A stretch of DNA of 41,721 nucleotides, from the IMG/VR virus record IMGVR_UViG_646311923_000005; one strand, 5' to 3'. Made by a program: the position numbers. Of this stretch, positions 30,001-36,000 are shown one piece after another. Origin of the DNA: a virus (taxonomy: Duplodnaviria; Heunggongvirae; Uroviricota; Caudoviricetes). Position 1 is the stretch's first letter, and each line of letters starts with the position of its first letter.

Positions 30001-33000
30001 CAGGGTAATCCGGTCAGCGTGGAGGTCCAGTCCGTCACCGACGGCGTGAAGGTGAAAGTGAGCCGTGTTCCTGACGGCGTTGCTGAATACAGCGTATGGG
30101 GGCTGAAGTTGCCGACGTTGCGCCAGCGCCTGTTCCGCTGCGTGAGTATCCGTGAGAACGACGACGGCACGTATGCCATCACCGCCGTGCAGCATGTACC
30201 CGAAAAAGAAGCCATCGTGGATAACGGGGCGCACTTTGACGGCGACCAGAGCGGCACGGTGAATGGTGTCACGCCGCCAGCAGTGCAGCACCTGACTGCC
30301 GAAGTCACCGCAGACAGCGGGGAGTATCAGGTACTGGCCCGCTGGGATACGCCGAAGGTGGTGAAGGGCGTGAGTTTCATGCTTCGCCTGACCGTGGCCG
30401 CGGATGACGGCAGTGAGCGGCTGGTCAGCACAGCCCGGACGGCGGAAACCACATACCGCTTCACACAACTGGCGCCGGGGAACTACAGGCTGACAGTCCG
30501 GGCAGTAAATGCGTGGGGGCAGCAGGGCGATCCGGCATCGGTATCGTTCAGGATTGCCGCACCGGCAGCGCCGTCACAGATTGAGCTGACGCCGGGCTAT
30601 TTTCAGATAACCGCCACGCCGCATCTTGCGGTTTATGACCCGACGGTACAGTTTGAGTTCTGGTTCTCGGAAACGCGGATTACCGATATCAGGCAGGTTG
30701 AAACCACAGCCCGCTATCTTGGCACGGCGCTGTACTGGATAGCCGCCAGTATCAATATCAAACCGGACCATGATTATTATTTTTACATCCGCAGTGTGAA
30801 CACCGTTGGCAAATCGGCATTTGTGGAGGCTGTTGGCCAGCCGAGTGATGATGCATCCGGCTATCTGGATTTTTTCAAAGGCCAGATAACCGAATCCCAT
30901 CTCGGCAAGGAGCTGCTGGAAAAAGTCGACCTGACGGAGGATAACGCCAGCAGACTGGAGGAGTTTTCGAAAGAGTGGAAGGACGCCAACGATAAGTGGA
31001 ATGCCATGTGGGGCGTCAAAATTGAGCAGACCAAAGACGGCAAACATTATGTCGCGGGTATTGGCCTCAGCATGGAGGACGCGGAGGAAGGCAAACTGAG
31101 CCAGTTTCTGGTTGCCGCCAATCGTATCGCGTTTATTGACCCGGCAAACGGGAATGAAACGCCGATGTTTGTGGCGCAGGGCAACCAGATATTCATGAAC
31201 GACGTGTTCCTGAAGCGCCTGACGGCTCCCACCATTACCAGCGGCGGTAATCCTCCGGCATTTTCCCTGACACCGGACGGAAAGCTGACCGCTAAAAATG
31301 CAGATATCAGTGGCAGTGTGAATGCGAACGCCGGGACGCTCAACAATGTCACAATTAATGAGAACTGTCAGATTAAGGGGAAACTGTCAGCCAACCAGAT
31401 TGAAGGCGATATAGTCAAAACAGTGGGTAAGGCTTTTCCGCGGGACTCCCGGGCACCGGAGCGGTGGCCATCAGGGACCATTACCGTCAGGGTTTATGAC
31501 GATCAGCCGTTTGACCGGCAGATTGTTATTCCGGCGGTGGCATTCAGTGGCGCTAAGCATGAGAGAGAGCATACTGATATTTACTCCTCATGCCGTCTGA
31601 TAGTGCGGAAAAACGGTGCTGAAATTTATAACCGTACCGCGCTGGATAATACGCTGATTTACAGTGGCGTTATTGATATGCCTGCCGGTCACGGTCACAT
31701 GACGCTGGAGTTTTCGGTATCAGCATGGCTAGTGAATAACTGGTATCCCACAGCAAGTATCAGCGATTTGCTGGTTGTGGTGATGAAGAAAGCCACCGCA
31801 GGCATCAGTATCAGCTGAATTTTATAACCCATATACGGGCGCCAGAAATGGCGCCTTTTTTATTGCAGAAAAGCGAGAGGTAATTATGCGTAAACTTTAT
31901 GCCGCCATTTTGTCCGCAGCCATTTGTCTGGCCGTATCCGGTGCGCCTGCATGGGCGTCTGAACATCAGTCCACGCTGAGCGCGGGGTATCTTCATGTCT
32001 CGACGAACGTTCCTGGCAGCGATGAACTGAACGGGATTAACGTGAAATACCGTTATGAGTTTACGGACACACTGGGGATGGTGACGTCGTTCAGCTATGC
32101 AGGAGACAAGAATCGCCAGCTGACCCATTACAGCGATACCCGCTGGCATGAAGATTCCGTGCGTAACCGCTGGTTCAGCGTGATGGCGGGGCCGTCTGTG
32201 CGCGTGAATGAATGGTTCAGCGCGTATGCGATGGCGGGTATGGCTTACAGCCGTGTGTCGACTTTCTCCGGGGATTATCTCCGCGTAACTGACAACAAGG
32301 GGAAAACGCACGACGTGCTGACCGGAAGTGATGACGGTCGCCACAGCAACACGTCTCTGGCGTGGGGAGCTGGCGTGCAGGTTAACCCGACCGAATCCGT
32401 GGCCATTGATATTGCTTATGAATGCTCCGGCAGTGGCGACTGGCGCACTGACGGTTTCATCGTGGGTGTCGGTTATAAATTCTGATTAGCCAGGTAACAC
32501 AGTGTTATGACAGCCCGCCGGTTCAGGCGGGCTTTTTTGTGGGGTGAATATGGCAGTAAAGATTTCAGGTGTACTGAAAGACGGCACAGGAAAACCGGTA
32601 CAGAACTGCACAATCCAGCTGAAAGCAAAACGTAACAGCACCACGGTGGTGGTGAACACCCTGGCCTCAGAAAATCCGGATGAAGCCGGGCGTTACAGCA
32701 TGGACGTTGAGTACGGTCAGTACAGCGTTATTCTGTTGGTGGAAGGATTCCCGCCGTCACATGCCGGGACCATCACCGTGTATGAAGATTCTCAACCGGG
32801 GACGCTGAATGATTTTCTCGGTGCCATGTCGGAGGATGACGTCCGGCCGGAGGCACTGCGTCGTTTTGAACTGATGGTGGAAGAAGCGGCGCGTCACGCT
32901 GAGGAGGCGAAGAAGAATGCCGGAGAGGCGGAGACGTCCGCGAGGAATGCTGGCATATCAGCCAGTCAGGCAGAAGAGAGCGCTGCAAATGCTGACACTT

Positions 33001-36000
33001 CAGCAGGGGATGCATCGGAGTCAGCCCGGCAGGCGGCAGAAAGTGCAGCCTCAGCAAAGCAGTCAGAGGATGCGTCCTCGTCCTCGGCCTCTGCGGCCGC
33101 TCAAAAAGCCAGTGAGTCATTACAAAGTGCAACAGATGCTGAGTTGTCAAAAAAGATGGCAGAAAGTGCAGCCGGTAATGCAGCCAGGGATGCAACGACC
33201 GCAACAGAAAAAGCCCGGGAGTCAGCAGAAAGCGCACAGTCAGCGGAACAAAGCAGGATAGCGGCGGAAGAGGCCGTAAACCGAATCCCCACCGTGGTGG
33301 GACCTCCCGGGCCAAAGGGGGAACAGGGGCCCGCGGGTCCTCAGGGGCCGAAGGGTGATAAGGGAGAGCGCGGTGACACCGGCCCTGTCGGGGCAACCGG
33401 CGAACGGGGACCGGCAGGTGATGCTGGTCCGGCAGGCCCGCAGGGGCCGAAAGGTGACAGGGGAGAGCGGGGAGAGACCGGTCTGACGGGAAATGCAGGT
33501 CCACAGGGTCCAAAGGGAGATACCGGTGCGGCAGGCCCGGCAGGCCCACAGGGACCGAAAGGAGAAACAGGTGCGGCTGGCCCGGTGGGGGCAACCGGAC
33601 CTCAGGGACCGAAGGGCGACCCGGGGGAGACACAAATCCGTTTTCGTCTGGGGCCGGCGAGCATTATTGAGACAAACAGCAATGGCTGGTTCCCGGATAC
33701 AGATGGCGCACTCATCACCGGACTGACCTTTCTTGACCCCAAAGATGCCACACAGGTTCAGGGGCTGTTTCAGCATTTGCAGGTCAGGTTTGGTGACGGG
33801 CCGTGGCAGGATGTTAAGGGGCTGAATGAAGTGGGCAGTGATACAGGCAGAACAGGAGAATGACATGAATATACTAAAAAAACTTATGCAGCGTCTGTGT
33901 GGTTGCGGAAAGCATGATGGCCGTGAACACGTGCAGTCGCTTACAGCACAACTGCGACTGGGACCGGCAGACATTCTGGAGTCAGATGAGAATGGCATTA
34001 TTCCGGAGCAGGACAGGGTAATCACACAGGTGGTGATACTGGATGCGGATAAAAAGCAGATACAGTGCGTGGTAAGACCGCTGCAAATTCTGCGTGCTGA
34101 CGGGACGTGGGAAAATATTGGCGGGATGAAGTAACCCGACAGCTTCACAAAACCGGAGTCCGGCTCCGGTTTTTGTTGGCATGCCATGGTGATGTTTGTT
34201 AGGAAAGCAAAGGTGGCAAAACTGCTGGAGGTTTTGTGGTTGAGTATGCCAATATAATTAATAGATTAAAGAGTTAGTTGTGAAGAAAATATGGATAAAC
34301 AGGACGACGAATGCTTTCACCGATAAGGACAACTTTCCATAACTCAGCAAATATAGTGCAGAGTTCACCCTGTCAAACGGTTTCTTTTGCCGGAAAGGAA
34401 TATGAGTTAAAGGTCATTGATGAAAAAACGCCTATTCTTTTTCAGTGGTTTGAACCTAATCCTGAACGATATAAGAAAGATGAGGTTCCAATAGTTAATA
34501 CTAAGCAGCATCCCTATTTAGATAATGTCACAAATGCGGCAAGGATAGAGAGTGATCGTATGATAGGTATTTTTGTTGATGGCGATTTTTCAGTCAACCA
34601 AAAGACTGCTTTTTCAAAATTGGAACGAGATTTTGAAAATGTAATGATAATCTATCGGGAAGATGTTGATTTCAGTATGTATGACAGAAAACTATCAGAT
34701 ATTTATCATGATATTATATGTGAACAAAGGTTACGAACTGAAGACAAAAGAGATGAATACTTGTTGAATCTGTTAGAGAAAGAGCTGAGGGAAATTTCAA
34801 AGGAGCAGGATTCTTTGATTTCTATGTATGCAAAGAAAAGAAATCATGCATGGTTTGATTTCTTCAGAAATTTAGCCTTATTAAAAGCAGGAGAGATATT
34901 CAGGTGCACATATAATACAAAGAATCACGGTATTTCATTCGGGGAGGGGTGTATCTATCTTGATATGGATATGATACTTACAGGTAAGCTTGGTACAATA
35001 TATGCTCCTGATGGAATTTCAATGCATGTGGATCGTCGTAATGATAGTGTAAATATTGAAAATAGTGCAATAATTGTTAACCGTAGTAATCATCCTGCTC
35101 TACTTGAGGGACTTTCTTTTATGCATAGTAAAGTAGATGCTCATCCATATTATGATGGTTTGGGGAAAGGAGTTAAGAAATATTTTAACTTTACACCATT
35201 ACATAATTATAATCATTTTTGTGACTTTATTGAGTTTAAACACCCTAATATGATCATGAACACAAGTCAGTATACATGCAGTTCATGGTAAATGAATTTG
35301 ATAAAGTTTATTCTGTTGTAATAAATGATTTGCATGGTATTAGGTATCAACATGAAAATTCCCTCATTACAGTCCAACTTCAACTTTTCCGCCCCGGCAG
35401 GATACTCTGCTCTCATTGCTCCTAATCGTGCTGAAAATGCCTATGCGGATTACGTTTTGGATATAGGCAAGCGAATACCACTTTCCGCAGCAGATTTAAG
35501 CAACGTATACGAAAGTGTAATTCGTGCCGTCCATGACAGTCGTGGCAGACTCATTGATCAGCATACGGTCGATATGATTAATAATACTATACTTGATGCT
35601 TTGAGCCGCTCATAAACTTTTCGTGATGCCGTAAGCTATGGTATTCATATTCAGGATGCTGCAGATCGCAACGGATGAAGAGACATCGTTGTTGACAGTC
35701 TGGAAGAGGTATCGGGTGTTACTGAACCGTGTTGATACGTCAGTATCTCCAGATTTCGAGGGCCAGTAATACCTGATTTATAGTTCGTAAACGTTCGTCT
35801 GACGGGATGCTGGAAGGATGAATGAGTTGCCAGATACTCAAAAACAATAGTTAATTTCCAGTTTTTTGTTGTCATGTCATGGTGATGTTTGTTAAGAAAG
35901 TAAAGATTGATTCATTTTGAAGGTTGAAATGTATGCTATCACCATCTTCTGTAAATTTGGGGTGTTCATGGAATTCTTTAACCAGAAACCTGACTTCTCC

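Follow-up and report, generated by a model that had tools for sequence, protein, structure and literature searches.

The side tail fibre of phage lambda, Stf, is a protein of 774 amino acids that depends on Tfa. Trimeric Stf fibres project from the tail tip, and their genes follow J and lom. Behind the N-terminal collar of gpStf (PDB 9E7M/9MGH, chain Ta), whose contacts with gpV and gpM in Ur-lambda have been described, an Ala/Ser-rich trimeric coiled coil forms the proximal rod. The protein, which has been modelled to at least residue 525, continues with a hinge and, distally, with a coiled coil that resembles gp37; it binds OmpC. In a 2024 Nature paper on Stf engineering there is no mention of collagen, a chaperone or Tfa.

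Collagen-like proteins of the EPclA type (EHEC prophage collagen-like protein A), carried by lambda-like prophages of pathogenic E. coli, were described by Ghosh et al. (2012, PLoS One 7:e37872), and their members include ECs0844 (Sp3), ECs2941 (Sp15/VT1-Sakai), ECs2717 and Z0982 (CP-933K); Sp3 and CP-933K were listed there among the prophages of O157:H7 Sakai and EDL933. According to their Table 2, EPclA has 437 amino acids, with a coiled-coil region (PCoil) of 116 and a collagen domain (Col) of 111 residues, while length variants were given in Tables 2-3. When recombinant EPclA was expressed alone in laboratory E. coli, a soluble trimeric dumbbell was obtained, as seen by biophysical methods and electron microscopy. 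Its PCoil was an alpha-helical and trimeric coiled coil of about 16 nm which melted at about 50-52 °C, its collagen part was a triple helix of about 30 nm with a Tm of 42 °C, and PfC proved to be a trimerisation module that re-nucleated the collagen triple helix. The tail-fibre role of EPclA was regarded as "strongly suggested", not as proven (Ghosh et al. 2012).

The EPclB proteins of the short-tailed Stx2 phages (L0121 of 933W, ORF67/ECs1228 of Sp5, gp61 of phi24B) share PfN, PCoil, collagen and PfC with the fibre studied here, and are likewise followed by an 89-aa ORF consisting of PfC only (ORF68). They differ in their length of 645 amino acids, in having two collagen domains split by a Pf2 repeat, and in belonging to a podovirus tail. 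In phi24B, gp61 binds the gp62 adaptor ring. Immuno-EM placed the EPclB fibre at the tail end; in Sp5 this fibre is essential, and ORF68 was classed as non-essential (Mondal et al. 2016).

Organisation of the fibre gene

In the window, i.e. the whole analysed stretch of 41,721 nucleotides (IMG/VR record IMGVR_UViG_646311923_000005), the fibre gene belongs to the tail module, where it comes next after J and lom; upstream of it, the set of head and tail genes is complete (Table 1). The ORF runs from an ATG at 32550, which is also the RefSeq start, to a TGA at 33861-33863; there is an in-frame GTG at 32544, and the Pfam positions of the fibre domains are given in the 439-aa numbering counted from this GTG. 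The locus is 100% identical in RefSeq, where the fibre is WP_000279086.1, and the protein matched phrog_366 (tail fiber) with an E value of 1e-148. Its N-terminal part is a lambda-Stf-type collar (PF08400). This is followed by 115 residues rich in Ala, Ser and Glu, by 37 Gly-X-Y triplets and, at the C terminus, by PfC (PF06820) with 76 residues. In the Pfam search phage_tail_N matched at 3-135, nearly over its full length (profile 1-133 of 134), and Phage_fiber_C at 365-428, completely (profile 1-64 of 64); Collagen matched between them, and the remaining match, to PF13620, was weak. The Pf2 repeat (PF03406) was not among the Pfam matches of the fibre, unlike in the distal region of lambda Stf.

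Table 1. Features of the side tail fibre locus (positions in the window)
Feature	Position	Strand	Evidence and remarks
Terminator-like hairpin in the lom/fibre gene interval	32512..32533	+	Consensus scan; 8-bp stem with 7 GC pairs, then a T run; function predicted
Side tail fibre gene, most probably of EPclA type	32550..33863	+	ORF, 437 aa; coordinates include the stop
PfN domain, aa 1-135	32550..32954	+	PF08400, 1.3e-68
PCoil, Ala/Ser/Glu-rich predicted trimeric coiled-coil rod, aa 136-250	32955..33299	+	Composition and periodicity; 115 aa
Col, 37 uninterrupted Gly-X-Y triplets, aa 251-361	33300..33632	+	PF01391, 3.9e-18; predicted triple-helix stalk
PfC, globular domain at the C terminus for trimerisation, presumed receptor-binding knob, aa 362-437	33633..33860	+	PF06820, 1.1e-35
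AGGAG Shine-Dalgarno of the 89-aa ORF	33854..33858	+	Inside the last fibre codons; read from AGGAGAATGACATGA
89-aa free-standing PfC paralogue	33865..34134	+	PF06820, 5e-36; RefSeq 'phage tail fiber C-terminal domain-containing protein'
Hairpin and T run closing the fibre/PfC gene pair	34149..34177	+	AAAACCGGAGTCCGGCTCCGGTTTTTGTT; fold -21.1 kcal/mol, z = -2.2
tfa relic, C-terminal 36 codons only	35659..35769	+	PF02413 Caudo_TAP, 5.5e-12, profile positions 92-124 of 131

The N-terminus of the fibre, MAVKISGVLKDGTGK..., is that of the Stf collar, and no signal peptide was visible in it, as read from the sequence. The collar comprises residues 1-93, and 87 of these 93 are identical to the lambda gpStf collar. 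A scan of genome contigs for PfN was uninformative: mostly the laboratory-lambda orf-401 allele was found, in unrelated species and on contigs whose coverage was mostly about 1x.

The region behind the collar had been taken for an Ala/Ser/Glu-rich low-complexity stretch. The composition is correct (28% Ala, 15% Ser and 14% Glu in the slice 101-260 of the GTG-started translation); the description can be refined, since the Ala/Ser periodicity has its maximum at exactly 3.5 residues, with a power of 5.5 where the 95th percentile of shuffled sequences is 1.8, and by this periodicity the stretch is predicted to be a heptad coiled coil. As in lambda, an Ala/Ser-rich rod follows the collar, the genes stand after J and lom, and trimeric fibres would project from the tail tip. 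Lambda Stf is, however, far longer, its distal half is replaced here by collagen and PfC, and the intact tfa that immediately follows stf in lambda is missing.

All sequence features of EPclA could be found in the protein, namely PF08400, a heptad PCoil, a single uninterrupted Gly-X-Y domain and PF06820, and both the sizes and the architecture match (PCoil 115 residues); the 37 triplets (111 aa) equal the modal EPclA value. The fibre of VT1-Sakai (Sp15), H0004, showed 97.0% amino acid identity, the 13 substitutions being distributed over PfN (4), PCoil (7) and PfC (2) with none in Col; it also lies after J and lom, and its downstream 89-aa ORF differs at one residue. By this identity to a listed EPclA, the present protein would be a homotrimer with triple-helix and coiled-coil CD signatures. 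We read the gene as encoding a side tail fibre of the EPclA type that belongs to a lambda-like siphophage prophage, with the whole fibre architecture and assembly proposed below, and put the probability of this reading at about 0.9.

The sequence-only reading had described a short side tail fibre with an Stf-like anchor, collagen-like repeats and a short C-terminal domain. This is confirmed by the domain matches, and it is an ordinary observation. The novelty which the reading implied was not borne out, since the class, the domain map, the trimeric collagen fold and the length variants were published in 2012 and the 89-aa ORF has been on record since 2016; the thermal stability is known as well, and both genes are already named by RefSeq.

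The collagen stalk and its length

The Gly-X-Y register is continuous over the whole of Col in one unbroken run, and the triplets, estimated before at about 35, number exactly 37. With 14% Gly overall, 37 Gly residues in register correspond to a log10 P of about -31.6, and the Gly share of the fibre outside the run is 7%. Pro occupies the X position in 18 of the 37 triplets, and 21.6% of the residues are charged. BclA was among the PDB sequence matches to the domain. Long antisense ORFs of 286 and 315 amino acids over the collagen DNA were put down to the GGN-NNN-NNN coding pattern; RefSeq has no annotation there.

The repeat number does vary among related prophages, from 4 to 38 triplets: 4-37 per fibre were counted in the 80 cluster representatives having both PfN and PfC, and 20, 27, 30, 32, 36, 37 or 38 in the intact IMG/VR copies. 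These changes stay in frame among the relatives, complete chromosomes included. Imperfect repeats of 45 nt and 56 nt are present in the collagen DNA, and the stalk length probably shifts by whole triplets, by means of recombination among these repeats and the many prophage copies.

Proposed assembly of the fibre

The trimer, the coiled coil, the triple helix, the trimerisation by PfC, the dumbbell and the collar docking have been shown for near-identical proteins. By analogy, three chains would form one fibre here, the collar (aa 1-93) of each chain docking on the tail tube and the tip ring. After the collar a trimeric coiled coil built on Ala/Ser heptads, about 16 nm long, would come first, then a hinge and a 37-triplet triple helix of about 30 nm, and three PfC domains would form a knob of about 7 nm at the tip. 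The collagen helix would be unhydroxylated, its stability coming from Pro at X and from charged pairs. Since PfC would trimerise by itself and nucleate the collagen helix from the C-terminal end, a Tfa-type chaperone should not be needed, and tfa has probably decayed to a remnant because the fibre folds without one.

The present copy is presumably assembled on virions, and the knob presumably binds a cell-surface receptor, which would speed adsorption before J engages its own receptor. BamA is reportedly not the receptor for the fibres of phage lambda_2B8, which are closely related to the present one, and it has been argued that a flexible collagen stalk transmits a triggering signal poorly. 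When the PfC profile was compared with PDB sequences nothing credible was obtained (best E value 0.0095, no single stretch passing alone). A profile search among 1.84 billion representative proteins yielded 77 matches only, mostly Escherichia fragments, and no deeper family that could lend a function.

The downstream gene and the remnant of tfa

No intact Caudo_TAP (PF02413) gene was found downstream of the fibre, where the next ORF carries PF06820. The earlier statement that no tfa follows holds for an intact or functional gene and has to be amended for the 36-aa relic about 1.8 kb downstream of the fibre gene, which RefSeq lists as a pseudogene 'missing N-terminus'. The same reading saw "only an 89-aa ORF" behind the fibre; the ORF is not anonymous, since it encodes a conserved paralogue with 38% identity to the fibre PfC (E value 6e-15), and it matched phrog_576 at 6e-60. 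Its ATG at 33865 stands 1 nt past the fibre stop, and the two genes are probably translationally coupled. The pair recurs in 389 phage records; inducible phages that convert with Stx1a, Stx2a or Stx2c are among them, as are phage 2851 and phage 2B8. At the hairpin that closes it the GC content drops from 0.60 to 0.38, and the late operon likely ends here. AlphaFold2 modelling of the paralogue (alignment of 20 sequences) gave a mean pLDDT of 58 and a pTM of 0.44, values too poor for a fold search; modelling of the related C-terminal domain by the phi24B authors failed likewise.

The frame of the 89-aa ORF is open upstream of its ATG, and its fusion to the fibre through readthrough or a programmed +1 frameshift at GAA-TGA-C was therefore considered. 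This was rejected, since the AGGAG is placed for initiation at ATG 33865 and since Mondal et al. (2016) saw no signal for frameshifting. Under a prfB-type +1 mechanism the re-pairing from GAA to AAU is poor, which also counts against a frameshift. In the natural 494-aa fusions (P0014, P0015) an indel lies inside the fibre PfC, not at the stop, and the frame then reads into the 89-aa ORF.

Alternative roles

The 89-aa protein might be a functional replacement of Tfa that helps to assemble, cap or co-assemble with the PfC knob, and the locus would then not be chaperone-less; the protein may also contribute to receptor specificity. Its gene occupies the exact position of tfa in lambda, immediately behind the fibre stop and with its Shine-Dalgarno inside the fibre gene. 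All 43 intact PfC-ended fibres for which enough sequence was available downstream are followed by it, the single intact fibre with a different C-terminus is not, and it nearly always adjoins a PfC-ended gene; purifying selection on it is also stronger than on the PfC of the fibre itself (pN/pS 0.12 vs 0.30), and PfC is a known trimerisation module. Simple co-inheritance could, however, give such tight linkage, stable recombinant EPclA trimers form without the 89-aa protein, Sp5 stayed viable after the deletion of the equivalent ORF68, and a search for virion proteome evidence of the 89-aa protein found none. A replacement of Tfa is thus doubtful, and we hold it unlikely that the paralogue is an unrecognised partner of collagen-type fibres, i.e. 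a mini-subunit capping or co-assembling with the PfC knob in a Tfa-like job and helping to set specificity. For Sp5 ORF68 it was proposed in print that the small ORF is a silent reservoir cassette, an alternative C-terminal domain which recombination or frameshifting swaps in to change specificity (Mondal et al. 2016). The rare 494-aa frameshift fusions would fit this, as would a 92-aa chimera (P0241) made of the small-ORF N-terminus and the fibre PfC C-terminus. The fusions, however, were seen in no more than 1-4 contigs, where errors may have produced them, and no frameshift signal was found in Sp5 (Mondal et al. 2016). Since the two PfC coding sequences share 54% nucleotide identity with a longest exact run of 7-9 nt, there is essentially no substrate for homologous exchange. 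The ORF has retained its own Shine-Dalgarno and ATG, its N-terminal extension of 27 residues is conserved, and purifying selection acts on it as on an expressed protein; a silent cassette appears quite improbable.

The host of the prophage is an attaching/effacing E. coli of a non-O157 lineage, and nleB2, nleH and cif are further genes of the prophage. Identical fibre copies were found in O103:H2, O80:H26 and others. With this virulence cargo and lom beside the fibre gene, the collagen-like protein might serve mainly the bacterium, as an adhesin or host-matrix mimic like the streptococcal Scl, and not as a structural part of the phage; collagen-like proteins from other pathogens attach to host matrix or to cells, and the question was left open by Ghosh et al. 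(2012). Scl1/Scl2 of Streptococcus and BclA of Bacillus resemble the proposed stalk in their unhydroxylated, charge-stabilised Gly-X-Y helix nucleated by an adjacent globular trimerisation domain. They are, however, secreted, cell-anchored bacterial proteins, whereas the N-terminus here is the lambda Stf collar and the gene belongs to the late tail operon, behind J. The known expression of the prophage collagen-like proteins is tied to phage induction (Ghosh et al. 2012), and the EPclB relative sits at the tail end. Taken together, a mainly bacterial role is very improbable.

In the near-identical locus of the O103:H2 strain 129, RefSeq marks an IS3 element inside the gene of a Rha-family regulator. 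The same IS copy is present in the window at 10731-12040, 100% identical, together with truncated neighbouring genes; judged from the sequence, the prophage copy may be defective.

The practical value of the EPclA-type reading lies in annotation, as the fibre and its paralogue mark the end of the tail module in an effector-carrying lambdoid prophage. Such prophages would lack a tfa gene because the fibre carries its own trimerisation nucleus. Both the receptor of the PfC knob and the role of the 89-aa paralogue bear on the choice of new hosts by Stx- and effector-carrying phages.

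Structure of the side tail fibre gene

Translation of the plus strand gave an open reading frame of 437 aa, from the ATG at 32550 to the TGA at 33861-33863. RefSeq starts the gene at this ATG too, and a GTG is found in the same frame at 32544. The sequence-only reading had described a short Stf-like fibre, and its parts were recovered in Pfam in the expected order: an N-terminal phage_tail_N anchor (PfN; PF08400, 1.3e-68), a collagen domain (Col; PF01391, 3.9e-18) and a short C-terminal Phage_fiber_C domain (PfC; PF06820, 1.1e-35). In PHROGs the protein was assigned as a tail fibre (phrog_366, 1e-148).

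On careful translation the collagen domain consisted of 37 Gly-X-Y triplets in continuous register without interruption (aa 251-361), where about 35 had been estimated. Over the whole protein the Gly content is 14%, dropping to 7% when the run is left out; with the Gly frequencies of this protein, the chance of 37 Gly in register is log10 P of approx. -31.6. Pro occupies the X position in 18 of the 37 triplets. The stretch between PfN and the collagen run was indeed rich in Ala (28%), Ser (15%) and Glu (14%), and its coiled-coil nature (PCoil) was checked independently: the Ala/Ser positions of aa 101-250 have one sharp period, of 3.5 residues (power 5.5, against 1.8 for the 95th percentile of shuffled sequences). 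Thus every element described by the sequence-only reading is present within 32550-33863, the observation is confirmed and its interpretation is supported.

On the opposite strand, two long ORFs (286 and 315 aa) that RefSeq does not annotate run across the collagen-coding DNA; the simplest view is that they result from its GGN-NNN-NNN repeat composition.

Coordinates of the fibre gene and surrounding features
Feature	Position	Strand	Source or remark
Terminase, portal, capsid, tail genes incl. tape measure gene, L, C40 peptidase gene, tail assembly gene			morphogenesis genes, first in order
J	28423..31818		RefSeq annotation of strain 129
Terminator-like hairpin	31837-31856	+	after J
lom	31886..32485		RefSeq annotation of strain 129
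Terminator-like hairpin	32512-32533	+	after lom
Fibre	32550..33863	+	RefSeq annotation of strain 129
Antisense ORF, 286 aa	32773-33633	-	across collagen-coding DNA
Antisense ORF, 315 aa	33240-34187	-	across collagen-coding DNA
Collagen run (Col)	33300-33632	+	within fibre gene
89-aa "phage tail fiber C-terminal domain-containing protein"	33865..34134	+	RefSeq annotation of strain 129
Hairpin and T run	34149-34177		beyond 89-aa ORF
nleB2	34311-35291	+	type III effector cargo, right behind tail module
nleC, truncated to ~96 codons	35325-35612	+	type III effector cargo
tfa pseudogene fragment	35659..35769	+	between truncated nleC and nleH
nleH	35933-36814	+	type III effector cargo
cif, frameshifted	37031-37863	+	type III effector cargo

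Relation to known fibres

The fibre belongs to a protein class that is already described and experimentally characterised, and the observation is therefore not new. Ghosh et al. 2012 (PMC3368898) divided the "EHEC prophage collagen-like proteins" into four architectures, one of which, EPclA, has the order PfN, PCoil, Col, PfC. Most EPclA copies of O157:H7 Sakai and EDL933, including those of Sp3 and CP-933K, are 437 aa long with a PCoil of 116 aa and a collagen domain of 111 aa, and about 22% of the collagen residues are charged (PMC3368898), which matches the 21.6% of Col in the present fibre. The fibre of VT1-Sakai (Sp15) is 97.0% identical to it, with 13 differences in 437 residues and none in the collagen domain. 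The feature was carried, at some level of similarity, by 4814 of 5426 complete E. coli genomes, and was found in 389 phage records.

A scan of genome contigs with PfN returned mostly the laboratory-lambda orf-401 allele (frameshifted stf) at loci L087-L098, L100 and others, in assemblies labelled as Pseudomonas, Shewanella, Oceanobacillus, Bradyrhizobium, Kitasatospora and others. Most of these contigs have approx. 1x coverage and some are about 48.5 kb long, which looks like contamination of public assemblies with phage lambda DNA.

Prophage context

The window represents a lambdoid prophage, which over positions 8107-38363 matches a prophage of E. coli O103:H2 strain 129 at 99.9% identity; the gene order was taken from the RefSeq annotation of that strain. 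The fibre region is found without any difference (100% identity) in strains that include O103:H2 and O80:H26. Immediately past the 89-aa ORF, at about 34000, the GC content falls from approx. 0.60 to 0.38, and a hairpin with a T run follows, so that the morphogenetic module ends with the pair formed by the fibre and the 89-aa ORF. Since terminator-like hairpins stand behind both J and lom, the fibre gene is downstream of two predicted terminators and, if lambda late transcription is a guide, its expression presumably requires Q antitermination.

An IS3-family element lies inside a Rha-family regulator gene of the prophage (window ~10731-12040); the window lacks the IS66 element and the further IS3 copy of the relative in strain 129. 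The prophage of the window may not be inducible.

The 89-aa PfC paralogue

The 89-aa ORF proved to be a free-standing paralogue of PfC. Its last 62 residues match PF06820 (5e-36) behind an N-terminal extension of 27 aa, and it shares 38% identity (E 6e-15) with the PfC of the fibre. Its ATG lies 1 nt past the fibre stop, and an AGGAG 6 nt upstream is within the fibre gene. In the 80 IMG/VR loci that the small protein retrieved, it nearly always lay directly behind a PfC-ended gene. Conversely, among the 80 IMG/VR loci found with PfN, it stood behind all 43 intact fibres that end in PfC and have sufficient sequence downstream; one other intact fibre (519 aa, 45 triplets), the only one to end otherwise than in PfC, had no such ORF behind it. 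The pN/pS value was 0.12 for the small ORF (51 distinct DNA alleles) and 0.30 for the fibre PfC. The family is tiny, with 77 representatives among 1.84 billion proteins, the named ones being from E. coli, E. albertii and Citrobacter rodentium.

The counterpart in Sp5, ORF68, was described by Mondal et al. 2016 as a non-essential 89-aa fibre C-terminus polypeptide without frameshift signal, and they suggested that it might serve as a reservoir for fibre variation. When this idea was tested on the DNA, the coding sequence of the 89-aa ORF was only 54% identical to that of the fibre PfC and the longest exact runs were 7-9 nt, which makes homologous exchange between the two unlikely. A function as partner or cap is possible but unsupported.

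Rare natural variants were met in the homologue searches. In P0014 and P0015 (494 aa) a frameshift within the fibre PfC runs on into the 89-aa ORF, and P0241 (92 aa) is a chimera in which the N-terminus of the small ORF is joined to the C-terminus of the fibre PfC; these variants reflect either genuine rearrangement or faulty assembly. In the distant P0266 (565 aa) a collagen Gly-X-Y run is preceded by four PfC-like modules in tandem (...VVVLDAD...GILRVRRADGTW.EIPA..G), thus the PfC-like unit is also an internal repeated module beyond the Escherichia fibre architecture.

Length variation of the collagen domain

The repeats had also been considered likely sites of length variation by recombination, and their number does vary among related prophages. 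The 80 cluster representatives with both PfN and PfC have 4 to 37 triplets (most commonly 19, then 37), and intact IMG/VR copies have 20, 27, 30, 32, 36, 37 or 38. The EPclA and EPclD rows in the tables of Ghosh et al. 2012 (PMC3368898) cover collagen domains of 27 to 144 aa, those of 111 and 81 aa being present together in one Sakai genome. Since several length variants are on closed chromosomes, not all of them are assembly artefacts. PCoil also varies, being about 52, 74 or 115 aa in relatives. In the window the collagen DNA repeats are all imperfect (a 45-nt unit occurs twice at 84% identity, a 56-nt family at 61-80%). Many draft copies carry frameshifts within the collagen region; these could reflect genuine pseudogenes or errors in the sequencing.

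Folding and probable attachment of the fibre

The account of the mechanism combines experiments on near-identical proteins with inference. Expressed on its own in a laboratory E. coli host, recombinant EPclA forms a soluble trimer, which comes apart on denaturation; its CD spectrum shows a collagen triple helix with a Tm of 42 C and an alpha-helical coiled coil melting at about 50-52 C. By electron microscopy it has the shape of a dumbbell and measures 55-62 nm in length, PCoil forming a thick stalk of approx. 16 nm that is connected through a hinge to the thin Col stalk of approx. 30 nm. PfC and PCoil are the trimerisation modules, isolated PfN being a monomer, and Col-PfC refolds fast after melting (Ghosh et al. 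2012, PMC3368898), which indicates that PfC re-nucleates the triple helix.

The sequence-only reading had found no tail fibre assembly gene, only the 89-aa ORF. The Pfam search of the downstream ORFs agreed in that no intact Caudo_TAP gene was found after the fibre; the statement has to be amended in that the ORF is a PfC paralogue and a tfa relic exists 1.8 kb past the fibre. The relic holds the C-terminal 36 codons (Caudo_TAP 5.5e-12, profile positions 92-124 of 131) and suggests that the end of an ancestral lambda-type stf-tfa was overwritten, or that the effector cargo was inserted into it. The simplest reason for the missing gene is that it is not needed, since EPclA folds unaided and has its trimerisation nucleus in PfC.

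Residues 1-93 of the fibre, the predicted Stf-like anchor, are identical at 87 of 93 positions to the gpStf collar in the tail tip complex of Ur-lambda (PDB 9E7M and 9MGH). In that complex the collar domains contact gpV and gpM, three collars are joined to one trimeric rod via flexible linkers, and there are four fibres per virion. For phage lambda_2B8, which has closely related fibres, BamA is reportedly not the receptor. By analogy we infer that the present fibre would dock as in Ur-lambda, with the PfC knob held out to the cell surface.
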